64,000 bases of DNA from Escherichia coli (GTDB lineage: Bacteria > Pseudomonadota > Gammaproteobacteria > Enterobacterales > Enterobacteriaceae), in the NCBI RefSeq assembly GCF_965641715.1, contig NZ_OZ282453.1. One strand, 5' to 3'. Position 1 is the first letter of the stretch. Each line of letters begins with the position of its first letter. The notes beneath the pieces were generated by a model. The model saw only the letters and a list, made by a program, of their open reading frames with translations. It was not told the origin of the DNA and made no database searches. Below, piece after piece: positions 5,906-21,105 of the stretch. The translations under genes and the position numbers were made by a program.

Positions 5906-7132
5906 ATGGGAATTAACGAAATCATCATGTACATCATGATGTTCTTTATGCTGATAGCTGCCGTAGACAGGATCCTGTCGCAGTTCGGCGGTTCTGCTCG
6001 TTTCCTCGGTAAGTTCGGTAAAAGTATCGAAGGATCAGGCGGTCAGTTCGAAGAAGGCTTTATGGCAATGGGCGCACTGGGCCTGGCGATGGTCGGTATG
6101 ACCGCGCTGGCACCGGTACTGGCTCACGTTCTCGGGCCGGTAATTATTCCGGTTTACGAAATGCTCGGCGCTAACCCATCGATGTTCGCCGGAACACTGC
6201 TGGCGTGCGATATGGGCGGCTTCTTCCTCGCCAAAGAGCTGGCGGGCGGCGACGTAGCCGCGTGGCTATACTCTGGGTTAATTCTCGGGTCGATGATGGG
6301 GCCAACGATTGTGTTTTCCATTCCGGTGGCGCTCGGCATTATCGAACCTTCTGACCGTCGTTATCTGGCGCTCGGCGTGCTGGCGGGCATTGTGACCATT
6401 CCGATTGGTTGTATCGCTGGTGGTCTGGTTGCTATGTACTCCGGTGTTCAGATCAACGGCCAGCCGGTGGAATTCACTTTCGCCCTGATCCTGATGAACA
6501 TGATCCCGGTGATCATTGTTGCGATTCTGGTGGCGCTGGGGCTGAAATTCATCCCAGAAAAAATGATCAACGGCTTCCAGATCTTCGCCAAATTCCTCGT
6601 TGCATTGATCACCCTCGGTCTTGCCGCTGCGGTAGTGAAATTCCTGCTTGGCTGGGAACTGATCCCCGGTCTGGATCCTATCTTTATGGCCCCTGGCGAT
6701 AAACCCGGTGAGGTGATGCGCGCCATTGAAGTTATCGGTTCTATCTCCTGCGTTCTGTTAGGGGCGTATCCGATGGTGCTGCTGCTGACCCGCTGGTTTG
6801 AAAAACCGCTGATGAGCGTCGGTAAAGTGCTGAATATGAACAACATCGCGGCAGCCGGCATGGTGGCAACGCTTGCCAACAACATCCCGATGTTCGGCAT
6901 GATGAAGCAGATGGATACCCGCGGCAAAGTCATCAACTGCGCCTTCGCCGTTTCCGCTGCTTTCGCCCTGGGCGACCACTTAGGCTTCGCCGCTGCCAAC
7001 ATGAATGCCATGATCTTCCCGATGATTGTCGGCAAGTTGATCGGCGGCGTAACGGCGATTGGCGTGGCGATGATGCTGGTGCCAAAAGACGACGCGACCG
7101 CGGCTAAAACCGAAGCGGAGGCACAATCGTGA
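5906..7132 (+). CDS. eutH: Ethanolamine permease EutH (408 aa)
   Basis: Polytopic membrane protein translation, expected length and position. Confidence 0.9.
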   Translation: MGINEIIMYIMMFFMLIAAVDRILSQFGGSARFLGKFGKSIEGSGGQFEEGFMAMGALGLAMVGMTALAPVLAHVLGPVIIPVYEMLGANPSMFAGTLLACDMGGFFLAKELAGGDVAAWLYSGLILGSMMGPTIVFSIPVALGIIEPSDRRYLALGVLAGIVTIPIGCIAGGLVAMYSGVQINGQPVEFTFALILMNMIPVIIVAILVALGLKFIPEKMINGFQIFAKFLVALITLGLAAAVVKFLLGWELIPGLDPIFMAPGDKPGEVMRAIEVIGSISCVLLGAYPMVLLLTRWFEKPLMSVGKVLNMNNIAAAGMVATLANNIPMFGMMKQMDTRGKVINCAFAVSAAFALGDHLGFAAANMNAMIFPMIVGKLIGGVTAIGVAMMLVPKDDATAAKTEAEAQS

Positions 7133-8532
7133 ACACTCGCCAGCTACTGAGCGTCGGTATCGATATCGGCACCACCACCACCCAGGTGATTTTCTCCCAC
7201 CTGGAACTGGTTAACCGTGCGGCGGTGTCGCAGGTGCCGCGCTACGAATTCATCAAACGCGAAATTAGCTGGCAAAGCCCGGTGTTCTTTACCCCTGTCG
7301 ATAAACAGGGTGGTTTAAAAGAAGCGGAACTGAAATCGCTGATTTTAGAGCAATATCAGGCTGCGGGCATTGCGCCGGAAAGCGTTGATTCTGGTGCCAT
7401 CATCATCACCGGTGAAAGCGCGAAAACCCGCAATGCTCGCCCGGCGGTGATGGCGCTCTCTCAGTCGCTGGGCGATTTTGTCGTCGCCAGCGCCGGGCCG
7501 CACCTCGAATCCGTGATCGCCGGTCACGGTGCCGGGGCGCAAACCCTTTCTGAACAACGGCTGTGTCGGGTACTGAATATCGACATCGGCGGTGGCACCG
7601 CGAACTACGCCCTGTTCGATGCCGGAAAAATCAGCGGCACTGCCTGCCTCAACGTCGGTGGTCGCCTGCTGGAAACCGACAGCCAGGGGCGCGTGGTTTA
7701 CGCTCATAAACCGGGGCAGATGATTGTGGATGAGTGCTTCGGCGCAGGCACCGATGCCCGTTCGCTGACCGGCGCGCAGCTGGTGCAGGTTACCCGGCGG
7801 ATGGCAGAGCTGATTGTCGAAGTGATTGACGGAACGCTTTCGCCGCTCGCGCAGGCATTAATGCAAACCGGTTTGCTGCCCGCAGGTGTTACGCCCGAAA
7901 TCATTACGCTTTCTGGCGGCGTGGGCGAATGTTATCGCCACCAGCCCGCCGACCCGTTCTGTTTTGCCGATATTGGCCCGCTTCTGGCAACGGCGCTGCA
8001 TGACCATCCGCGCCTGCGTGAGATGAACGTGCAGTTTCCGGCGCAAACCGTGCGCGCCACGGTGATTGGTGCGGGTGCACATACCCTTTCGCTCTCTGGC
8101 AGCACAATCTGGCTGGAGGGCGTACAACTGCCGCTGCGCAATTTGCCGGTGGCGATCCCAATTGATGAAACGGATCTGGTGGGTGCCTGGCAACAGGCGC
8201 TGATTCAGCTGGATCTTGATCCCAAAACTGACGCGTACGTGCTGGCGCTTCCCGCCTCGCTGCCTGTGCGTTACGCCGCGGTACTGACGGTCATCAACGC
8301 GTTGGTCGATTTCGTCGCGCGTTTTCCGAATCCGAATCCCCTGCTGGTGGTGGCCGGGCAGGACTTTGGTAAAGCTCTGGGCATGTTGTTGCGCCCACAG
8401 CTACAACAACTCCCGTTGGCAGTCATTGACGAAGTGATTGTCCGCGCGGGGGACTATATCGACATTGGTACGCCTCTTTTTGGCGGATCGGTTGTGCCGG
8501 TGACGGTGAAATCACTCGCATTTCCTTCCTGA
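7129..8532 (+). CDS. eutA: Ethanolamine ammonia-lyase reactivating factor EutA (467 aa)
   Basis: Translation recognised as EutA; 4-nt overlap with eutH stop. Confidence 0.9.
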   Translation: MNTRQLLSVGIDIGTTTTQVIFSHLELVNRAAVSQVPRYEFIKREISWQSPVFFTPVDKQGGLKEAELKSLILEQYQAAGIAPESVDSGAIIITGESAKTRNARPAVMALSQSLGDFVVASAGPHLESVIAGHGAGAQTLSEQRLCRVLNIDIGGGTANYALFDAGKISGTACLNVGGRLLETDSQGRVVYAHKPGQMIVDECFGAGTDARSLTGAQLVQVTRRMAELIVEVIDGTLSPLAQALMQTGLLPAGVTPEIITLSGGVGECYRHQPADPFCFADIGPLLATALHDHPRLREMNVQFPAQTVRATVIGAGAHTLSLSGSTIWLEGVQLPLRNLPVAIPIDETDLVGAWQQALIQLDLDPKTDAYVLALPASLPVRYAAVLTVINALVDFVARFPNPNPLLVVAGQDFGKALGMLLRPQLQQLPLAVIDEVIVRAGDYIDIGTPLFGGSVVPVTVKSLAFPS

Positions 8533-8655: not shown

Positions 8656-9309
8656 TCACTCAGGGAACAAGTTGATTTGAAGCAAACTGCCAATGTATTT
8701 ACCAGTGCTTTTAATTTTTCGCTTTGATGGCTTACACGAATTCAGGTTGACACCAGCCTGGCTAGATATTGGCTTGTATTGCCGCTCCGCCAGTACGATC
8801 AGGTCTGCCGCGTCTTTTAGCTTTCCATCGTTAGCCAGTTCCAATGCTCGATCCGCCATTTGCCCGCATTGTTGAATCAGCTTAAGTTGCGATACCTCCA
8901 GTCGCAATTGCTGGATTCGTTCTACCACTTTCGCCCTAATGCGCTTAGTTTCACGCATTCCCATTCTTAATGCCTGGTTGCCAGTAAGTGAGTAAACCTC
9001 TTTTTCTTTCCTGAAGTTTGCGGCTTTACCGTCAGCTTGGACGCGCATTTTATGCGCTTCCAAGAATTCGCCCTCCAATTCATCCCTGATCTTCGCGTTG
9101 AATCTGTCGTTCTTGAGTTCATTTAACCCTTCCGCCTTGCGGATCTGGTTGATTAACTCCAACAATTCATCACTGCGGATACGCCACTCGCTATCAACCT
9201 GTACCAAGTCAAACATGTTGTTGCTCCCGTTTTGCTGCCATAGGGCAACGGCTCGCCAGCCTTTATCACCTCCTTTAGTTGTTGCGATTCTTAACTGAAT
9301 GGTTATCAA
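8656..9309 (-). CDS. Hypothetical island protein, charged/coiled-coil-rich (217 aa as ORF; likely start at internal ATG 9216, 186 aa)
   Basis: ORF translation; GGGAG-type RBS upstream of internal ATG at 9216; no domain recognised. Confidence 0.45.
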   Translation of the reverse strand: MITIQLRIATTKGGDKGWRAVALWQQNGSNNMFDLVQVDSEWRIRSDELLELINQIRKAEGLNELKNDRFNAKIRDELEGEFLEAHKMRVQADGKAANFRKEKEVYSLTGNQALRMGMRETKRIRAKVVERIQQLRLEVSQLKLIQQCGQMADRALELANDGKLKDAADLIVLAERQYKPISSQAGVNLNSCKPSKRKIKSTGKYIGSLLQINLFPE

Positions 9310-11356: not shown

Positions 11357-13723
11357 TCAACGTCTGCGCGGCTGCAAAATTCCTCCGGGTCGTTGTGATT
11401 CACGCTGCATCAGTCGCATCGCTGTGTTTTCTATGGTCTGCTGCAGCGCTTTTGAGTCTTCCTCTGTCCAGCCGTTGTTAGCCTGGATGTTGAACGTATT
11501 GTTCATCGTGATTCCGCCACCGCCTACCAGATCGCGGCCCGGTGTAACTCGTCCACCTTCACCCGGGATCATGTACTGTTTCCCGCCAGTGGATGTAAAT
11601 AGCTCCGGTACTCCGTGCTCCCCGACCCTATAAAGATTGCCACCGTTAACAGCCCCGCCGTTGTAACGAGCGCCAGCCAGTCCAAGCGTTTTGGCGGCAG
11701 CTACGCCAGTAGTAAGCCCGGTAAGTCCAGTGGCCCCAGCGCCGCCCATCGTGGCTACGTTAGCCAGGTATGCAGGAGTGGCCCACGCCGATCCTAATGC
11801 TGTAGCCTCTGCTAGTGCTTTAGCTGTTGCGGCTGCGTTTGCGGCTTCACCAATTAGCTGCTGTTTAACCCACTCAGCACCCATCTGGACAATGCCACCG
11901 ACCACAGAAGACAGGATCGTACTGCCAACGTTGGCAAGTGACTCTTGCAGCGATTGAGTACCGTTTATCAGTCCGGTAAATGCGCTGCCAGCGCCAGACG
12001 ATAACCCATCGACCATATTCCCGATGAGGCCATTTATATCGCTTTGTTTCTTCCACTGCTGCCACTGGAGATCCAGAACCCTTTGTTCATGTGCGATCTC
12101 TTCCTGGCGCAACTGCTCTTCGGTAGCCCCAAGATCTAGAAGCATTTGCTTGCGAACAGCCCATTCATTTTGGATCTTCTGTATTGGGTCAATCTGAGCT
12201 TTCTGCTTATCCTGCTCACTGACAAGACTGTCCCATTTCGCTTTCTGCTTGCGGATGGCTTCAGCTTCATCAATTGCTGCGAGTGTACTTGCTCGCTGTT
12301 TCGCGCTGATCAACCGTTTCTGCTCAGCCGCTTCCAGGTCTTCTACTGCTTTTTTCCGTTTATTGAGCGCCGCTAGTTCGGGATCGTATTTTTCCACCAA
12401 TGAAAGGCCGCTTGCTTCCTTACGTTCGCGTTCTCTTTGTGCCTGTTTGGCTGCCTGCTTAGCGGCGTTTTCTGCTTGTTTGGCTGCTCTTTCTTTCGCC
12501 CTGGTGTTCTCTTCTTCCTTGCGCTTATTCTCTTCTAACTCCTTGTTTTGTTCGCGTAATTTAACGATTTCCTCATGATGCGCCTTTGTCAGCTGGCCTT
12601 CTTTCAGTGCCCGATCTATATCAGCGTTTGCGTTGCCTTTTAGCTGTTCCTGTTTAACTTGCAGATGTTTAATCATCATTTCGCCAGTGGCAATCGCTGC
12701 CGCAGACGCTCCAGCATTCAGAGCTTCATTTAACGCTCTCTGACGTTCTTCTGCTGTTAATGCCTCGTTGCTGTATCGAAGTAGCGCATCAACGTATTTC
12801 TCCAGTTCTGCGCGGCCTGCCGCAGTTGCTGGTTCCATTGCTTTTAGGATGCTCAGAAGGCTTTGCGCTTCATAGGAAGACGGGTTTTTGCGGAACTGCG
12901 CCATAGCGTTATAAAGCGCCATAGCTTCACCCTCTGTGATTCTGTACTTAGCTCCCAGCCCTTCAATGACCGCTGATAACTGTTTGCCAAGCGCTGCACC
13001 GAATGCGCCTTCCTTGCTTAATTTGTTGAGCACTTCACTCAGTGAATTTCCTGACACGCCCAGCGCGTCGAGTTCTCTTGCTACCGTTCCCAGGTCGCCG
13101 CCTTTCATCCATCCTGCATTAGAAAATTCAGTGATAGCCCGGCCCGCTTCCCGCGTTTCTTCCTGGAGTGTTTTTAGCGCCCGCACGGCCTGCTCTTTCA
13201 TTACGGCGGCGGCAATGGCGTTGTTCTGTGTGGCTTCGTAATATGAATCACTGAAAGCGTTAACGCCCTGGGTGGATTTGCCGATCACGGCGTCGATTGA
13301 TGCTAATGCCTCCTTCATCCTTTCAGCGCTATCCGTTGCGTCGTCCATGCTGTCCGTTAGGCTGTTGGCAATCGCCCCGCCAATAGCCATCACCGCCCCC
13401 ATGACCGCACCGCCAGTACCGAAGGCAGCGGCAAGTTGTGCACCCTGCACAGCGAACGCCTGGAGCGCATTACCGCCCATCTGCAATTGAGTGGCAAGGT
13501 CTGCGATCTGGTATGATGCGTTACGGATTGCCGGGGAAAGGTTGGTTTTGACTGCGGCAGACGTTTTGGTCATCTGCGTGTTCAGTTTTTTGACGCCACT
13601 GTCAGCGCGTTTTGCGCCGCGTTCTATACTGTCAAAAGCCTGGTCCGCTTCTTGTTGTGCTGCCAGGAGTTTACCAGTACGGGCGTCGACCTCATAGTAT
13701 ATGGTCCCAAGATTCCCACTCAT
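11357..13723 (-). CDS. Phage tail tape-measure-like protein (788 aa)
   Basis: Long Ala/Gly/Gln-rich coiled-coil protein; C-terminal motif ...GGNLYRVGEHGVPELFTSTGGKQYMIPG... resembles the conserved C-terminal block of siphovirus tape-measure proteins. Confidence 0.6.
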   Translation of the reverse strand: MSGNLGTIYYEVDARTGKLLAAQQEADQAFDSIERGAKRADSGVKKLNTQMTKTSAAVKTNLSPAIRNASYQIADLATQLQMGGNALQAFAVQGAQLAAAFGTGGAVMGAVMAIGGAIANSLTDSMDDATDSAERMKEALASIDAVIGKSTQGVNAFSDSYYEATQNNAIAAAVMKEQAVRALKTLQEETREAGRAITEFSNAGWMKGGDLGTVARELDALGVSGNSLSEVLNKLSKEGAFGAALGKQLSAVIEGLGAKYRITEGEAMALYNAMAQFRKNPSSYEAQSLLSILKAMEPATAAGRAELEKYVDALLRYSNEALTAEERQRALNEALNAGASAAAIATGEMMIKHLQVKQEQLKGNANADIDRALKEGQLTKAHHEEIVKLREQNKELEENKRKEEENTRAKERAAKQAENAAKQAAKQAQRERERKEASGLSLVEKYDPELAALNKRKKAVEDLEAAEQKRLISAKQRASTLAAIDEAEAIRKQKAKWDSLVSEQDKQKAQIDPIQKIQNEWAVRKQMLLDLGATEEQLRQEEIAHEQRVLDLQWQQWKKQSDINGLIGNMVDGLSSGAGSAFTGLINGTQSLQESLANVGSTILSSVVGGIVQMGAEWVKQQLIGEAANAAATAKALAEATALGSAWATPAYLANVATMGGAGATGLTGLTTGVAAAKTLGLAGARYNGGAVNGGNLYRVGEHGVPELFTSTGGKQYMIPGEGGRVTPGRDLVGGGGITMNNTFNIQANNGWTEEDSKALQQTIENTAMRLMQRESQRPGGILQPRRR

Positions 13724-14012
13724 AATATCTTTATCCGCGTTGTGCGGACACCTCCGATTATTCTTTACTCTAATAATTTCACAATGAAACAGTTTATTGC
13801 CGCTTCAGTGGCTTCGTGTTCCGGTTTGCTTCGATCAATCACAAAAAATACAGCTTAATAGAATCAATGGCTTATAAAGTTGTATTAGCTATGTTTCTTC
13901 GTCCGTGCCACTGAAAACCCAGTTTTTCCAATGGAATCAATACTGATATGTATCCATACTGTTTTTCACATAATGTACGTTATGCGCACTACGGGAAACG
14001 TACTGAATTTAT

Positions 14013-14243
14013 TTACTGGTCGCCGTTCAGTTCATGCAGAGTCTGTTCTGGCAATGAATCCAGCCAGTTTTCTGCATCCTCCCTGTAACACTCCAGGATG
14101 CAACGGTTTGTGAAGTTGATGAAAGCGGTCAGTGATTCTGCTTCGTCGTTCCTGTGCGTTCTCCTGGCGTGCTTGCGTAGTCGTTTCGCGTCTGCCAGTT
14201 GGTCATTGAGTATCTTCAGTCTGTCGGCAATATCATCGTTCAT
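14013..14243 (-). CDS. Hypothetical small island protein (76 aa)
   Basis: ORF with GAGGGAGAG RBS upstream of ATG. Confidence 0.4.
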   Translation of the reverse strand: MNDDIADRLKILNDQLADAKRLRKHARRTHRNDEAESLTAFINFTNRCILECYREDAENWLDSLPEQTLHELNGDQ

Positions 14244-14378
14244 GTCGTCTCTCCCTCGCGCGCGCGTCGTACTTGTCCGAAAATTACCCCCATAAAAGCG
14301 CCCCTCATATAGTGCAAAATCCCGGCTGACGCGGATCTCAGTGGGTTTTAGCAGTGAAAACTGACATCAAAAACGGCT

Positions 14379-14426
14379 CGCTAAGGTCCGCTAAGTATCC
14401 GCTATCGTTCGCTAACCCCCCGCTAA
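14379..14426. repeat. Five direct CGCTAA/CGCTAT hexamers phased at 10-11 bp (candidate protein-binding array)
   Basis: Copies at 14379, 14389, 14400, 14410, 14421; one helical turn apart; intergenic. Confidence 0.5.
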
Positions 14427-14430
14427 CCTA

Positions 14431-14796
14431 TTAGATATCGCATCCAACGCTATTGAGCTGGCTATGTATATCGGCGCGAATTAACTTCAGGCGTTTACAA
14501 AATTCGCGTTCTTCCGAATTAAGCTCGCGGCCACCTTGTTTCGAGGCAATGAGCTTGTTGATGGTGGAAAGCGAATATTCACTCCATATACGAAGCATTT
14601 GTCGCTTCATTGGTTGCTCGCTCAATGGTGAGTTTTTCAGGTCTGACACGCGCTCTGCGACGGTTCTTGCGATGCCTTGTACCACTCGTAGTGCCAACAT
14701 GATGATTTTCTCCGGACTTGTGCTAATATAGTTCCCGAACATTGTTTCGAGACTGCTTATCCTGTTTGTCTTGTCCGATTTGTTCATTGGTCGCAT
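14431..14796 (-). CDS. Hypothetical island protein (121 aa)
   Basis: ORF only; weak RBS, so lower confidence. Confidence 0.35.
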   Translation of the reverse strand: MRPMNKSDKTNRISSLETMFGNYISTSPEKIIMLALRVVQGIARTVAERVSDLKNSPLSEQPMKRQMLRIWSEYSLSTINKLIASKQGGRELNSEEREFCKRLKLIRADIHSQLNSVGCDI

Positions 14797-14838
14797 TGTT
14801 AAGTCAGCCGGGGTAATTCCCGGCTTTCTTTTATCCGA

Positions 14839-15381
14839 TCAGTACCGAATCCCTATCGCATTGAATACGCGTTTCCGTTGCTCAGCTTCAGGATCGGCGG
14901 CCATTTCTGGTTCTGGCTCCGGCATAGACGGGGCGGCATCAAAATGCTCAATTTCACGACCGAAATACGAGTTCAGGTCAATACCTGCCGAACTATCCAC
15001 TCCATCAAAATAGCGACGCTGTTCCTCGGTGAGACAGCTACCCAGACGTTCCTCAACCTGCGCCATAAACTCAGCATCCGGTGAGAAGTACTCATCCGGA
15101 GTCGGAGCACCGCTCTGTTTGTGCATCTCCATTTTCTCTGCGTTCGTTTTCAGCCCGGCAATGCGTTTCTCCAGTCCGGCGGCTTTAATAGCGTCAGCAA
15201 CGATTTGTGGGATCTGCGGTTTAATTATTTCGATAACTTCATTGCTGATTAATTTAAACTGGGCCATACGGATCGCTTTAATCTGCTTATTTAACAGTGC
15301 GCGTTCCCCTTCGTTGGCGGTTTTATCACGCTGTGCTACCAGTTCATCGCCTTTGTTTGTCAGTACATCAAATGCGTCCAT
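14839..15381 (-). CDS. Hypothetical island protein (180 aa, acidic C-terminus)
   Basis: ORF with strong GGAGGAGG RBS. Confidence 0.5.
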   Translation of the reverse strand: MDAFDVLTNKGDELVAQRDKTANEGERALLNKQIKAIRMAQFKLISNEVIEIIKPQIPQIVADAIKAAGLEKRIAGLKTNAEKMEMHKQSGAPTPDEYFSPDAEFMAQVEERLGSCLTEEQRRYFDGVDSSAGIDLNSYFGREIEHFDAAPSMPEPEPEMAADPEAEQRKRVFNAIGIRY

Positions 15382-15398
15382 TGTCTTTCCTCCTCCGA

Positions 15399-15725
15399 TT
15401 ATTTAAAAGTGCTTATTGACACGCCGAAACGACGACTTAATTCAAAAAGGAGTCGCGCCTTTGCAGTGCCTTCCATGTCTTCCGGCATTTCAGACTGAAG
15501 TTTATCAGCTACTTCATCAACAAGTGGCCGAACCGTTTCCACGAACTTGTCCGCAATATAATCAGCAGAACGCATCACTTTTTCCTGGAATTCCTCACGG
15601 CGTACCTGGGCGGCTGATTTAGGGGCTGTCGTGCGCTGAAAATAACTGTCTAATGAATGCATGGCATCTGCTCCTTTTACTTTGATTGCTGTTATTTCTT
15701 TAATTGTGTTTGCTTTGATTTTCAT
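15399..15725 (-). CDS. Hypothetical island protein (108 aa)
   Basis: ORF with AAGGA RBS; tightly packed after upstream gene. Confidence 0.5.
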   Translation of the reverse strand: MKIKANTIKEITAIKVKGADAMHSLDSYFQRTTAPKSAAQVRREEFQEKVMRSADYIADKFVETVRPLVDEVADKLQSEMPEDMEGTAKARLLFELSRRFGVSISTFK

Positions 15726-15801
15726 GCTGCCTATTCCTTCAGAAATTGCGGTAGTTTGCTTTTTAAATCAATAAGTTATTTGATAATCTCAGTAGCTGTT
15801 T

Positions 15802-15993
15802 TCATTGGTGGCGAGCGCCTTTGTTTTTATAGAATTCCAAAATCTCAGATCGGATAAACTTAATTCTTGAGCCAATCGGACTGACCGGGACGGGCCAGCC
15901 TTTAATCTTGTTCATCCACCGGAATATTGTCCGACGGGTAACGCCGAATAAAGCTGCTACCTCGTTAACCGTCATTAATTCGCTATCATTCAT
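15802..15993 (-). CDS. AlpA/excisionase-family small HTH regulator (63 aa)
   Basis: Translation ...MTVNEVAALFGVTRRTIFRWMNK... matches AlpA-type prophage regulators; typical partner of P4-type integrases. Confidence 0.6.
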   Translation of the reverse strand: MNDSELMTVNEVAALFGVTRRTIFRWMNKIKGWPVPVSPIGSRIKFIRSEILEFYKNKGARHQ

Positions 15994-16280
15994 GTTCTCA
16001 CCTCAAAAAGTAGCGGTGAGGAAAATATGGAGAAAACCCTCACCGCGCCCTGAATGAAATTAAAGACCAACATTACTGTTGATACTTATTATTATATTCC
16101 TCCTGTCCCTGTTTCACATCTTTTACCATATAGTGAAAGGGGATATTCTGTAATGTTTACAAAACTTTTAATTAGCAAAAAATAATTGCGCATCTCACGT
16201 AATGCAGGGATAATATTACTCAAGGGCTGGTTGCCCTTACTCAAAATGTGATCTATAACTACAACGATCTATTTCACTTC

Positions 16281-16307
16281 CCCGCTTTCTCCGGCGGGAT
16301 TTTTTTG
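16281..16307 (+). terminator. Plus-strand intrinsic terminator-like hairpin within 600-bp noncoding stretch
   Basis: cccgc-tttctccg-gcggg followed by a ttttttt. Confidence 0.4.
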
Positions 16308-17122
16308 CCTGCAATCTGGCACCATTGCGCACATTAAAATTAGATGCCATTTAAAAGCGATATAACGCGTTCTGCCGGGCTTAATTTTGGCTATCCACTT
16401 GGAAGGGTAAGCCTGTTTTGATTCGTCTGGCGTGGAATGGTGCGGCGGTAATATCAGATCTCAGCGTTCTGCGTGGTGGGATGAAATAGCCTGGCAGGAT
16501 TTGCGTGTGGTTTGCTCTCCCAAAAAATGGGGTAATGGCGCTGGCTGGATGGCAGGACTCCGCGCTGATTACTGGATGGCTGAAAATTTAATGAAATCGC
16601 ATCAATTTTAATGCGTCTAAATCGCTCTGTGGCGACGTGAAGTTTTCAGGTAAGCAAGTGTAGCTGTGTGGTGTGTTCATCGCGTTACTGGCACCATTCC
16701 GTTCGAATTTGGCGCTATCAGGATGGTTTGCGGTGGTCGGCGGCGGGGATAAACTTGCTTGAGTGGTCACCTCAGCCTGCTGTGCGTCGTGTGATGGTAC
16801 TGTCTGCACCTGGCTATACGCTGCTTTGCTGCTGTTTCCTGTCTGGTCTGTATACGCGATAAAACCCATCGGCTTTACAGTGAGTGAGTTTTTTGCGCTT
16901 TGCTTTCCATTCGGTTTGCTTACTGCTGCTGTGTGTCTGTGCGGTAGCTCAGAAAGCTGTCGATGATAACCATCACTGCCAGACCGTCTTTTGAGCTGGC
17001 GATTGCTCGAAGTCTTCCGAAGGTCCGCTGGGCTTGTTGCTTGTTTGTGTTCTTTTAAAATGCGCGCCTCTTACTTTCTCTTAAAAAGAAAAAAGGAATA
17101 TACAGATCTCATACTATGTGTG

Positions 17123-17273
17123 TCCCAAATGTCACACGTCATGGCCTGACCTGTATCCCAAATGTCACACGTCACCCTCTGACCTGTATCCCAAATGTCA
17201 CACGTACCTGTGTCCCAAATGTCACACGTCTATTGTTAATTAATTGTTGACCTGTGTCTCAAATGTCACACGT
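17123..17273. repeat. Iteron array: five direct copies of TCCCAAATGTCACACGT (fifth TCTCAAATGTCACACGT)
   Basis: Copies start 17123, 17156, 17189, 17213, 17257; AT-rich block tattgttaattaattgttga between copies 4 and 5. Confidence 0.65.
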
Positions 17274-17338
17274 CTGTTGATGGTTTAAGTAATAAAAAGG
17301 GCCACCATTTTAGGTGACCCATTGATGCGTTTTAGTCG

Positions 17339-18103
17339 TTATCTTGCGTTCTCGACCTGAAAAAGCATTCTGTATTTTCTTGCGTGCTGACCAATAACAT
17401 ATTCCCCGTATGGCTCAATGAGTCCTAACTCAACCAGGATTTTCATCTGGCGAATTACGGTGCGGCGATTCATGCCCCATTCATCAGCTATTTTTGCCTG
17501 GCAAACTTCAGATACATAAGATCCATCATTCTGCTTTCTTGCTGCTGATGCAATGCTGGATAATACGCTCCAGGCTGTAGCTTTAGCTTTATTCTCGCAA
17601 CCACTTCTGACAAATGCCTTACGTGCCGCACCCAAACAGACATAACTGCAATAAATTCCTTTTTCTTCCGTTTGGTATTGTGTCTCTTTATCCTGCATGG
17701 CTTCCGGTTCTTCCGGCGCTTCCTGCTGTGGTGCTGTCTGCGAAGTTTTAGCGGCCATACTGCGTAGCTCGTTCACGATATCAGTAGCTGATTTCTTCTC
17801 GCTTTTAGTTTCCTGCGTGACTGATAAATACTCACCTTGTAACGCCAGGAAGTCAGCGCGGGCGTTTGCCTGGCTTTGTTCTGGTGATTCAGGTTCTGCA
17901 TCGGCAGGTGATGAAATCGGTGATACACGCGCCCAGCCTGTTTTGGCGTTGCATTCCCAGCGATAACCATTAAAGCGGATATCATTCAGGCCATCATCAA
18001 TGGCGCTCCGTACTTCTTCCGGGATCGCGTCGATTTTCTGAAGGCTGTGTTTACCGAGTGATTCGCCTTGCCGTGGGGCGTAGGCGGTTGGTAAAATATT
18101 CAT
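17339..18103 (-). CDS. Putative winged-HTH DNA-binding protein, candidate replication initiator or regulator (254 aa)
   Basis: C-terminal HTH-like segment ...GMNRRTVIRQMKILVELGLIE...; perfect AAGGAGA RBS; iterons immediately 3' of gene. Confidence 0.5.
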   Translation of the reverse strand: MNILPTAYAPRQGESLGKHSLQKIDAIPEEVRSAIDDGLNDIRFNGYRWECNAKTGWARVSPISSPADAEPESPEQSQANARADFLALQGEYLSVTQETKSEKKSATDIVNELRSMAAKTSQTAPQQEAPEEPEAMQDKETQYQTEEKGIYCSYVCLGAARKAFVRSGCENKAKATAWSVLSSIASAARKQNDGSYVSEVCQAKIADEWGMNRRTVIRQMKILVELGLIEPYGEYVIGQHARKYRMLFQVENAR

Positions 18104-18349: not shown

Positions 18350-19555
18350 TCACGGCTCCAGCGGATTACCGCCACCAGCCAATATCTGGTCGATGGCGTC
18401 GCTGTAGTCCTGCATCATGGCCCGCCGTTGCTTCAGATAGGCCGCCTGGTTATAAACGCCGCGCACACCTTTCGGAACGTGGGCCAGTTGGATTTCGATC
18501 CAGTCTGGTGAGTATCTGCCGTACTCGTTAAGTGCGGTTGAAAAGGTGGTTCGCCAGCCGTGACCAGTGGCTATCGACTTGTATCCGATACGCTCCAGGG
18601 CTTTAAGGATGGCACTGGCTGAAAGTGGCTTATCCATGAATCGACCAGGGAACACAAAAGCACTGTATCCGCTGCGGGTAAACTGGTCCTGTAATAGCTC
18701 GACCGCCTGCCGGGATAGCGGGACCACATGCGGGCGGCGGGCCTTCATGACTTCAGCGGGTAGGGTGATGGTTGCCGATTCCAGATCTACCCACTCCCAG
18801 CGCATTAAACGCAGTTCTGCGGTCCTTAGGGCGCTTAATATAAGCAAACGTATTGCCGTCTGAATCTGAACGCTCCCGGCTCTCTCAAGGGCTTTGTAGA
18901 AGGCCGGGATTTCGTTAATTTGTATCCATGCGTTATGGCCTGGGCGTCGGGCTTTCAATGCCGTGTCCAGATCTGCAACCGGATTTCGGTTAACCAGTTC
19001 AGTGATAACGGCAAATTTGAAGATTTCCCCTATACGCTGCCGTAATTTTCGGGCCTGTTCCGGCGCGGTGCGCTCTTTCTTCTGAAGCAATGCCAGCACG
19101 TCACGGGCCGTTATATCGACAATCGACCGCTTGCCAAGTACCGGATAAACATCTTTCTCCAGTGCCGATCTAACTTGTTTCGTGTAAGACTCAGACCAAC
19201 CGCTCACTCTGGTAGCAAACCAGTCTTCCGCTACCGTCTTAAAACTTGCCGCCATGTTGAGCGCATCAATGGCTTTCTCCTTGCGCGCTTCTTCCATTGG
19301 GTCAATTCCCTGGGCGATGAGTAAACGGCTCTCTGTGGCGCGTTTACGTGCTTCCTTCAAGGTAATCAGCGGATATACCCCAATAGCCTGTAACCGCTCT
19401 TTCTTGTCTATCCAGTACCGGAATCGCCAGTATTTGCTGCCATTGGGATGTACCAGCAAGAACAGGCCAGGTGTCTGTGAATCGGTGAGTTTGTAGGGCT
19501 TGTCCTTCGGCTGGGCGGCCTCTATGCCCTTTGCTGTCAGTGGTGTCTTGCTCAA
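18350..19555 (-). CDS. Tyrosine-type site-specific integrase, P4-like family (401 aa, TTG start)
   Basis: Translation ...GLFLLVHPNGSKYWRFRYWIDKKERLQAIGVYP... typical N-terminal arm-binding region of P4-type integrases; located at island edge. Confidence 0.85.
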   Translation of the reverse strand: MSKTPLTAKGIEAAQPKDKPYKLTDSQTPGLFLLVHPNGSKYWRFRYWIDKKERLQAIGVYPLITLKEARKRATESRLLIAQGIDPMEEARKEKAIDALNMAASFKTVAEDWFATRVSGWSESYTKQVRSALEKDVYPVLGKRSIVDITARDVLALLQKKERTAPEQARKLRQRIGEIFKFAVITELVNRNPVADLDTALKARRPGHNAWIQINEIPAFYKALERAGSVQIQTAIRLLILSALRTAELRLMRWEWVDLESATITLPAEVMKARRPHVVPLSRQAVELLQDQFTRSGYSAFVFPGRFMDKPLSASAILKALERIGYKSIATGHGWRTTFSTALNEYGRYSPDWIEIQLAHVPKGVRGVYNQAAYLKQRRAMMQDYSDAIDQILAGGGNPLEP

Positions 19556-19743
19556 AACCGGATACCTCGATCTAACGACTCGATAACCCCGCTCATGTAT
19601 CCGTCGCGTTCGGTTGCGTTCGGCAGGATAAGTAACGGGCGTATTAAGTGGAACACCTTACAGGACAAGGGATAACGATGAAATAGAATTGTTCGAATGC
19701 TGTGAAAAATGTTACTCATCACTTCTTCCTGAGGGAACGACTT

Positions 19744-21105
19744 ATGAAACTAAAGACCACATTGTTCGGCAATGTATATCAGTTTAAGGATGTAAAAGAG
19801 GTGCTGGCTAAAGCCAACGAACTGCGTTCGGGGGATGTGCTGGCGGGCGTCGCAGCGGCAAGCTCACAGGAGCGCGTGGCGGCAAAGCAGGTGTTGTCGG
19901 AAATGACCGTAGCGGACATCCGCAATAATCCGGTGATTGCCTATGAAGATGACTGCGTGACGCGGCTGATTCAGGACGATGTTAACGAAACGGCCTACAA
20001 CCAGATTAAAAACTGGAGCATCAGCGAACTGCGTGAGTATGTGCTGAGCGATGAAACCAGCGTGGACGACATTGCCTTTACCCGCAAAGGGCTGACCTCG
20101 GAAGTGGTCGCGGCGGTAGCGAAGATTTGCTCCAACGCGGACCTGATCTACGGCGCGAAGAAAATGCCGGTAATCAAAAAGGCCAATACCACCATCGGTA
20201 TTCCGGGCACCTTTAGCGCCCGTTTGCAGCCAAATGACACCCGTGACGACGTGCAAAGTATCGCCGCGCAAATCTACGAAGGGCTTTCCTTCGGGGTGGG
20301 CGATGCGGTGATCGGCGTCAACCCGGTAACTGACGATGTGGAAAACTTAAGCCGCGTGCTGGATACCATTTATGGCGTGATCGACAAATTCAACATCCCA
20401 ACTCAGGGCTGCGTACTGGCGCACGTCACCACCCAGATCGAAGCGATTCGTCGCGGCGCGCCTGGCGGACTGATTTTCCAGAGTATCTGTGGCAGCGAAA
20501 AAGGGCTGAAAGAGTTTGGCGTGGAACTGGCGATGCTCGACGAAGCGCGCGCAGTGGGCGCAGAGTTCAACCGTATCGCCGGGGAAAACTGCCTCTACTT
20601 CGAAACCGGACAAGGCTCTGCGCTATCCGCTGGCGCTAACTTCGGCGCTGACCAGGTGACGATGGAAGCACGTAACTATGGGCTGGCGCGTCATTACGAT
20701 CCGTTTATCGTCAACACCGTGGTCGGTTTTATTGGGCCGGAGTATCTCTACAACGACCGCCAGATTATCCGTGCTGGCTTAGAAGATCACTTTATGGGCA
20801 AGCTGAGCGGCATCTCTATGGGCTGTGACTGCTGTTACACCAACCACGCTGACGCTGACCAGAACCTCAACGAAAACCTGATGATCCTGCTCGCCACCGC
20901 AGGCTGCAACTACATCATGGGGATGCCGTTGGGCGATGACATCATGCTCAACTACCAGACCACCGCCTTCCACGACACTGCCACTGTGCGTCAGTTACTC
21001 AACCTGCGCCCGTCACCGGAGTTTGAACGCTGGCTGGAAAGCATGGGCATTATGGCAAACGGTCGCCTGACCAAACGGGCGGGCGATCCGTCACTGTTCT
21101 TCTGA
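19744..21105 (+). CDS. eutB: Ethanolamine ammonia-lyase large subunit EutB (453 aa)
   Basis: Translation recognised; start at ATG 19744 (MKLKTTLFG...). Confidence 0.9.
   Translation: MKLKTTLFGNVYQFKDVKEVLAKANELRSGDVLAGVAAASSQERVAAKQVLSEMTVADIRNNPVIAYEDDCVTRLIQDDVNETAYNQIKNWSISELREYVLSDETSVDDIAFTRKGLTSEVVAAVAKICSNADLIYGAKKMPVIKKANTTIGIPGTFSARLQPNDTRDDVQSIAAQIYEGLSFGVGDAVIGVNPVTDDVENLSRVLDTIYGVIDKFNIPTQGCVLAHVTTQIEAIRRGAPGGLIFQSICGSEKGLKEFGVELAMLDEARAVGAEFNRIAGENCLYFETGQGSALSAGANFGADQVTMEARNYGLARHYDPFIVNTVVGFIGPEYLYNDRQIIRAGLEDHFMGKLSGISMGCDCCYTNHADADQNLNENLMILLATAGCNYIMGMPLGDDIMLNYQTTAFHDTATVRQLLNLRPSPEFERWLESMGIMANGRLTKRAGDPSLFF

Follow-up and report, generated by a model that had tools for sequence, protein, structure and literature searches.

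An 11.2-kb island, lower in GC content than its surroundings, lies between eutA (7129-8532) and eutB (from about 19744) in the 64,000-nt stretch of Escherichia coli DNA analysed here (contig NZ_OZ282453.1 of assembly GCF_965641715.1, hereafter the window), and a run of five small genes within it is the subject of this analysis. The island is bounded by an 8-bp duplication, CTTCCTGA (other form TCAGGAAG), at 8525 and 19725, and both the site and the 8-bp target duplication published for the element CPZ-55 match those found here (PMC6379469). Every gene of the island is encoded on the minus strand, the order being IntZ, a Rep-like protein, iterons, a regulatory region of about 1.3 kb, the five small open reading frames (ORFs), a tape-measure gene, and homologs of YffR and YffS. 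An earlier interpretation from the letters of the window only (the sequence-only reading) had described the five ORFs as uncharacterised genes that share one direction within a mobile element, which was borne out, and had suggested anti-defence, exclusion or regulatory functions for them.

The ORF table confirmed five minus-strand ORFs upstream of a 788-amino acid (aa) ORF (11357-13723); they encode proteins of 63 aa (15802-15993), 108 aa (15399-15725), 180 aa (14839-15381), 121 aa (14431-14796, an over-extended call) and 76 aa (14013-14243). Strong Shine-Dalgarno sequences had been claimed for four of them and are present upstream of the 63-, 180- and 76-aa genes (GAGGTGA, GGAGGAGGA and GAGGGAGAG, respectively), whereas that of the 108-aa gene (AAGGA) is only moderate and weaker than the other three. 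The description of the genes as tightly packed fits the first three; the successive intergenic gaps are 76, 17, 42 (138 with the corrected start of the fourth gene), 187 and 289 nt, and the last two contain conserved non-coding elements.

The fourth ORF had been noted for its weak ribosome-binding site, and there is indeed no Shine-Dalgarno sequence at the start of the 121-aa call, but this is an artefact of a wrong start codon rather than a biological feature. In the family alignment (A5), the other sequences (27 of 27) are 67-100 aa long and start at or beside the column of an internal methionine, mostly with ML(A/T)L(R/K) (the exceptions are K-12 YffM and the L016 copy, which are N-terminally shorter), and RefSeq annotates the counterpart in close relatives with 89-95 aa. 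In the window this methionine is the ATG at 14700, with GGAGA nine bases upstream, and the alignment identifies the true product as a protein of 89 aa (14431-14700, minus strand); the anomaly of the weak ribosome-binding site disappears with this start. The 108-aa gene may also start internally, at Met22 (ATG at 15662, Shine-Dalgarno sequence AAGGAG), which would give 87 aa: distant homologs and one 87-aa RefSeq call begin there, as does the conserved part of the family.

Each of the ORF families has full-length homologs in diverged elements, at 40-60% identity. Compared with E. coli relatives, the first gene has a ratio of nonsynonymous to synonymous substitution rates (dN/dS) of 0.06-0.25 and the 89-aa gene one of 0.12 (the latter measured at a dS of 2.1); in the other ORFs the ratio is 0.4-0.74, where it rests on very few substitutions. 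Because of these homologs and dN/dS values, the five ORFs are judged by comparison to be genuine genes and more than chance ORFs.

Related loci (numbered with the prefix L below) were gathered by way of homologs, E. coli genomes and plasmids, and their proteins were clustered locally. The same gene order recurred in every relative examined: the AlpA-like gene (in some followed by an HNH gene), then the 108-, 180- and 89-aa families, in some one or two genes of about 90-120 aa, usually an Sf6-type small terminase (TerS, PF20901) and a YffP-like protein of about 196 aa, and often, after the latter, a tape-measure protein, which may be preceded by an HK97-gp10-like tail-completion protein. This order was seen in about 20 related islands and in small E. 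coli plasmids. The small terminase PF20901 was found in L005, L012, L013, L016, L017, L018, L020 and L022, and in E. coli K-12 the product of yffO (L003, 6612-7028, annotated as uncharacterised) matched PF20901 (E 2.6e-9), YffP being the protein of about 196 aa. The window island represents a sub-type without TerS and YffP that has the 76-aa gene instead. In L008 (NZ_CP172108.1, near ychJ/rssA) the same module, interrupted by insertion sequence (IS) elements, follows an integrase of another kind and occupies a different place in the chromosome, so the module evidently moves between integration backbones. Three plasmid records, L023-L025 (NZ_CP062859.1, CP057337.1 and CP057168.1; two circular, of 9.0 and 9.7 kb, and one linear record of 8.0 kb), contain the AlpA-108-180-89-TerS-YffP module together with a serine recombinase and without a tape-measure gene, and may be episomal satellites. 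The module thus occurs in islands at two attachment sites and also on small plasmids, and it always lies after the AlpA-like regulator and before the small-terminase or tape-measure module; this conserved syntenic position points to a role in the life cycle of the element itself.

By its site, its integrase and the shared yff genes, the island is a CPZ-55-type member. The CPZ-55 element of K-12 (intZ, yffL-yffS) occupies the same eutA/eutB site with the same 8-bp duplication; the tyrosine integrase IntZ at the eutB end of the window island (18350-19555, minus strand) is 92% identical to that of K-12, and homologs of YffM, YffR and YffS are shared. The AlpA-like, 108-, 180- and 76-aa genes are missing from K-12 CPZ-55, as is the tape-measure gene. 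Retained there are YffP and the small terminase YffO, both of which are absent from the window island. The literature classes CPZ-55 as a cryptic, 'grounded' prophage, and this, together with the loss of most of the module in K-12, might suggest that the five ORFs are what is left of a dead prophage in decay and have no present function. Such decay is, however, very improbable, as the ORFs are intact, their length is kept across 40-60% divergence, dN/dS is below 1, and the gene order is kept in about 20 elements and in plasmids. The combination of an integrase or recombinase, a putative replication module of its own, an AlpA-like regulator and, in most relatives, a small terminase subunit only, with neither capsid nor lysis genes and with stable size and order, argues for a satellite and against random prophage decay.

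Genes for anti-defence or exclusion typically occupy variable hot spots. The suggestion that the small genes are accessory cargo of this kind (anti-defence, superinfection exclusion or host-directed regulators) has in its favour that roles of this sort are common among the small orphan proteins of mobile elements, that within E. coli the 89-aa family is hypervariable, as would fit an arms race, and that the first gene has a sub-threshold match to MAD1, the helix-turn-helix (HTH) component of a methylation-associated defence system. The MAD1 match is far below the cut-off (28.6 against 80 bits) and concerns a generic winged HTH only; the four orphans have no PADLOC match (none was found for the 108-, 180- and 76-aa proteins, and a Cas8b match of the 121-aa ORF, E 0.017, was discarded as being at chance level); and within the family these genes are the core that is most conserved and syntenic, not a variable hot spot. 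The variable cargo sits instead at the eutA-proximal end of the island, which differs between strains (an AIPR-family gene is annotated there in some relatives and different genes in others) and is likely the cargo hot spot. The cargo explanation is therefore considered unlikely, and the earlier suggestion of anti-defence or exclusion is not supported in view of the conservation of the module.

The sequence-only reading could name no family for any of the five ORFs except the AlpA-like first gene, and this remained so after searches of Pfam, PHROGs, NCBIfam, PADLOC, the PDB and phage sequences and after fold searches; remote homology searches and structure prediction did not reveal clear homology to known structural or assembly proteins. 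As single proteins, the 108-, 180-, 89- and 76-aa products had no significant match in Pfam, PHROGs, NCBIfam or PADLOC, nor in the PDB, either by sequence or by profile (matches to designed helical repeats and TPR-like structures were compositional, contained no passing stretch, and were rejected). Joined as one query, the four proteins gave no match by tblastn in 50,697 phage records, and no PHROG was matched by any member of three family alignments.

The 108-aa protein (15399-15725, minus strand) belongs to an orphan helical family that is kept in all relatives and has no family, PDB or phage match. A set of 5.8 billion proteins contains only 12 close homologs of it, with distant members linked transitively in 9 loci, and the family is characterised by the conserved motifs D(S/T)YF and, at the C-terminus, RLL..(S/A)N.LG. 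An apparent C-terminal HTH (RRFGVSISTFK) was rejected, as it is not conserved in the family alignment.

The 180-aa protein (14839-15381, minus strand) had only 16 hits among 1.84 billion representative proteins. Its AlphaFold2 model and the family alignment indicate three parts: a helical N-terminus (residues 1-89, predicted as a helical hairpin and long helices), an acidic region of low confidence with repeated (L/Y)T..Q..YFD motifs, and a basic C-terminal helix, RKRVFNAIGIRY, which is kept in distant relatives as RKRILNAIGIPC and similar sequences. The predicted local distance difference test (pLDDT) score is about 90 at residues 1-75 and 46-77 in the remainder, and a fold search with the model returned only generic helical bundles or coiled coils, none with E <= 0.001. 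In distant relatives the gene is split into genes of about 80 and about 140 aa with paralogous N-terminal hairpins. Scaffold mimicry by the C-terminal peptide was considered and rejected, since the head-to-tail regions of the phages mEp013 and mEp021 have no similar motif. In the gap that follows the 180-aa gene, an 8-bp GC-rich hairpin (14806-14825) is terminator-like on the plus strand only, with no T-run after it on the minus strand.

The 89-aa protein (14431-14700, minus strand) is of the YffM family: its C-terminal half is 45% identical to K-12 YffM, which is a truncated homolog. The AlphaFold2 model is an antiparallel three-helix bundle (pLDDT 93.5, predicted TM score 0.82); Foldseek searches against the PDB and BFVD (viral models) gave generic bundles only, none with E <= 0.001. 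As the model has neither an HTH nor a ribbon-helix-helix, protein binding is more likely than DNA binding. The family comprises 56 clusters with identities of 49-99%, and every cluster with a source name is from E. coli. Its divergence is conspicuous within the operon: in a comparison of the window with L002, identity is 98-99% (1-2 differences) for the 108- and 180-aa genes and the first gene has a dS of 0.37, whereas the 89-aa gene is 74% identical with a dS of 2.1, i.e., there is sharp mosaicism along the operon. Four cysteines are conserved in many members of the family (CPxxC ... EC ... GCD in alignment A5), suggesting a possible metal site; the window copy has lost three of the four, by which the family falls into two sub-types.

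Directly 3' of the 89-aa gene are five helically phased TAGCG/CGCTA repeats with a spacing of 10-11 bp (14379-14425), the sole run of at least four phased copies of any 5-mer in the window. The array is absent from L002, L006, L007 and L009, but repeats are found at the same position in L018 (TTAGCG-like, 11 bp) and L016 (six copies of AATTCG, 11 bp), where they are directly upstream of terS; it is possibly a pac/TerS-binding site or a regulator site. Alternatively, the repeats could be centromere-like, and the small genes might serve maintenance or replication control of an episome (copy number, partition, stability), as could be expected from the presence of the module on small circular plasmids and from a weak, sub-threshold match of the 180-aa protein to the IncP plasmid proteins KleA/KleC (E 0.0022, 18.7 bits with a cut-off of 25). 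We regard this as rather unlikely: the module is physically tied to the small terminase in most relatives, the phased repeats of L016 and L018 stand directly before terS, no ParA, ParB or ribbon-helix-helix-like fold or family was detected, and the replication genes are elsewhere (Rep and iterons in the window island, a DUF5906 protein outside the small-ORF module in L013). In the window island the Rep-like protein (254 aa, 17339-18103, minus strand) has a C-terminal HTH (Pfam HTH_36, E 3.5e-5, below the cut-off with 23.9 against 25 bits), weak matches to replication initiators in PHROGs and weak similarity to YffL. Just 3' of its gene are five iterons of about 22 bp, TGTRTCYCAAATGTCACACGTC, and an AT-rich stretch (17119-17285), presumed to be the origin of the island; no primase was found in this replication module.

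The 76-aa helical protein (14013-14243, minus strand) is of restricted distribution, with only 8 homologs among 5.8 billion proteins, and occurs in islands that lack the small terminase, always upstream of the tape-measure module. The 788-aa product of the next gene (11357-13723, minus strand) is a tail tape-measure protein (phrog_1538, E 8e-112). Its closest phage relatives are in the mEp013/mEp021 group (compared with mEp013, residues 431-788 are 56% and residues 1-75 are 45% identical, the middle being divergent), and for this reason these phages are candidate helpers. The gene is intact here and very variable between otherwise near-identical islands (L001, L002, L004, L016-L018, L020). A periplasmic prolyl isomerase is known to assist genome injection by phage HK97; in L004 (11384-12893) and L017 (9295-9795, 11484-11927), genes for a cyclophilin-type peptidyl-prolyl isomerase and for an HK97-gp10-like tail-completion protein are found beside the tape-measure gene.

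The 76- and 89-aa genes, both upstream of the tape-measure gene, were also considered as tail-assembly chaperones or helpers of the tape-measure protein, in the manner of lambda G/GT. For the 76-aa gene alone this is a tentative possibility, as its family is found, in the islands examined that have a tape-measure gene, directly upstream of the tape-measure module, or at the place where this module was deleted or disrupted by an IS (L008, L009), and in L004 a 70-aa homolog of 60% identity adjoins an HK97-gp10-like gene upstream of the tape-measure gene. For the two genes as a set it is quite unlikely: a lambda G/GT-type pair of overlapping ORFs with a -1 frameshift was not found directly upstream of the tape-measure gene, which has no ORF overlapping in the -1 frame and is separated from the 76-aa gene by a non-coding gap of 289 nt, and PHROGs gave no tail-chaperone match. 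For the 89-aa gene a G/GT-type role was rejected, as its family occurs just as much in elements that have no tape-measure gene (K-12, L005, L023-L025).

The gap itself (13724-14012) is an AT-rich non-coding region of about 270 nt with no minus-strand ORF of at least 40 aa. It shows few substitutions across eight islands whose tape-measure proteins diverge far more and whose upstream gene differs (90.7% identity by megablast to relative H68). At its end stand GGAGG, a TCCGCACAACGCGGA hairpin and, about 30 nt downstream, the ATG; together they may constitute a hairpin-bridged ribosome-binding site of the tape-measure gene.

The first gene of the operon (15802-15993, minus strand) encodes a 63-aa AlpA-like, excisionase-type winged HTH protein. 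Its designation as AlpA-like was correct in part: the protein matches Pfam HTH_17 (E 7e-9, 36.2 bits against a cut-off of 27), whereas its match to Phage_AlpA is below the cut-off (E 0.029, 14.7 against 21 bits). The best PHROG is phrog_66, 'excisionase and transcriptional regulator' (E 1.7e-9), and close homologs are named 'AlpA family transcriptional regulator' in RefSeq; by its matches it is a winged HTH protein of the MerR/excisionase type. Just 5' of its Shine-Dalgarno sequence, a leader hairpin GCGGTGAGG-N16-CCTCACCGC (16013-16046, minus strand) was read from the sequence, with a perfect stem of 9 bp (16046-16038/16021-16013), a CU-rich loop and a U-run at 16005-16009; its folding has a z-score of -3.7 relative to shuffled sequences. 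Six diverged islands, including that of the window, have GC-rich stems of 9-12 bp at the same place, with CU-rich loops of 12-29 nt and each with a U-run. The retention of this structure at the same place despite different stem sequences argues for a functional hairpin that serves as attenuator or terminator, possibly as operator. Upstream of the hairpin, a promoter scan detected the promoter-like site GTGAAA-N18-AATAAT (16117-16088, minus strand). On the plus strand, divergent from the AlpA-like gene, there are a promoter-like site (16156-16183) and a conserved intrinsic terminator (16281-16306), which could define a small RNA of about 110 nt; this candidate was rejected, since RNAalifold backed the terminator stem only and Rfam gave no match.

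In the remainder of the island, the 158-aa and 265-aa proteins are homologs of YffR (34% identity) and YffS (70% identity), respectively, and the last gene (8656-9309, 217 aa) has weak matches to anti-repressor (Ant-like) PHROGs (E 1e-5). The 467-aa eutB ORF of the ORF list is over-extended, with a GTG start inside the island junction (19702-19744); the 453-aa protein of K-12 starts with the ATG near 19744.

Among the 10 island proteins scanned, there was no match to a capsid, portal, large-terminase (TerL) or lysis family, and in Pfam and PHROGs none to the families of P4-like elements (Sid, Psu, Delta, alpha-primase) or of cf-PICIs (capsid, portal, protease). There is a close likeness to Gram-negative phage-inducible chromosomal islands (PICIs; e.g., EcCICFT073, with int, alpA, pri-rep and Rpp/cos), with which the island shares the size (11.2 kb, compared to 10-15 kb), the terminal position of the integrase, an AlpA-like regulator at the head of a co-directional operon, a putative replication module of its own and the lack of capsid and lysis genes, and, in its relatives only, packaging-redirection genes. 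It is unlike them in that its replication gene is between int and alpA, in that Rpp is absent, and in having a tape-measure gene; the packaging gene of its relatives is an Sf6-type TerS, unlike the Rpp of PICIs. Judged by its genes the island is therefore PICI-like but departs from PICIs in two of their usual characters, since it has a structural gene and no recognisable packaging function. Rpp is a protein of 144-153 aa with an N-terminal MerR-like winged HTH and a C-terminal helical dimerisation domain (PMC6739421). An identity of any of the small proteins with Rpp was rejected on architecture (the 89-aa protein is a bare three-helix bundle), and no meaningful PDB sequence match was found.

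Two further systems were compared. In operon 1 of the Staphylococcus aureus pathogenicity islands (SaPIs; cpmA, cpmB, ptiA/B/M, ppi, terS), small proteins remodel the capsids of the helper and block its packaging. The likeness to this operon would be one of position only, with small lineage-specific proteins encoded in a row just upstream of a satellite terS; there is no sequence or fold similarity, and the host clade and the regulators differ. The EPIPs of Mycolicibacterium are satellites with a small terminase and a tape-measure protein of their own, and tape-measure proteins are stated to be otherwise unknown in satellites except for the proposed case of PLE11 (bioRxiv 10.64898/2025.12.02.691453, December 2025). 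By this account, the members of the CPZ-55 family that have a tape-measure protein are unusual. EPIPs differ from them in an unrelated host phylum, a serine integrase and other gene content, and were isolated as particles, whereas the CPZ-55 family is known here from genes alone.

On balance, the five ORFs are probably the promoter-proximal conserved core operon of a CPZ-55-family element that is a PICI-like satellite. A signal from the helper phage would allow transcription to pass the leader hairpin and U-run, and the AlpA-like protein would then drive excision and expression of the operon. The 108-, 180- and 89-aa proteins would be small adaptors that bind helper proteins and either divert packaging or assembly in favour of the element or hinder the helper. 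Of these, the 180-aa protein would be the best candidate for a scaffold- or adaptor-like protein, with its coiled N-terminus, its low-confidence and possibly flexible acidic middle and its conserved basic C-terminal helix, and the hypervariable 89-aa bundle the best candidate for a specificity factor, contacting a variable partner such as the terminase. The 76-aa protein would function together with the tape-measure module and stand in for TerS-YffP in the terminase-less islands. Any single function proposed for one of the small proteins is nevertheless doubtful at best.

Several observations weigh against the satellite operon. The window island has no small terminase, no Rpp and no recognisable phage-like cos by which it could be packaged, and we infer its excision, replication and packaging from its genes. 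Its tape-measure gene breaks the usual rule that PICIs have no structural genes, and the analogy to the SaPI operon is positional. No DNA similarity to any phage was found when 13650-17400 was compared with phages by blastn, and pattern scans for relatives of the 180-aa protein in one genome per species and in the viral contigs of IMG/VR found none; with no relatives in either, there is no evidence that the element was ever encapsidated. The predicted folds, being generic helical bundles only, neither support nor specify a function. A search of the literature found no paper in which these genes or CPZ-55 are treated as a satellite.

More tentatively still, CPZ-55 and its relatives may constitute an undescribed class of E. 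coli satellites (islands and plasmids of 8-10 kb), in which the trio of 108-, 180- and 89-aa proteins would be a new apparatus for hijacking the helper, and many members would have a fast-diversifying tape-measure protein of their own, sometimes with a tail-completion protein and a cyclophilin; such satellites would remodel the tail of the helper rather than only its capsid or packaging. We regard this as possible but doubtful. The practical yield of the analysis is that one start codon was corrected, the genes were set in a defined conserved module, and the idea of anti-defence cargo became less likely. If the proposal were true, a 'cryptic prophage' of K-12 known for decades would be the eroded remnant of an active satellite family, and four orphan protein families would become candidates for new routes of phage parasitism. 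The family would also provide, among the Enterobacteria and in a tractable host, an example of a satellite that encodes a tape-measure protein.

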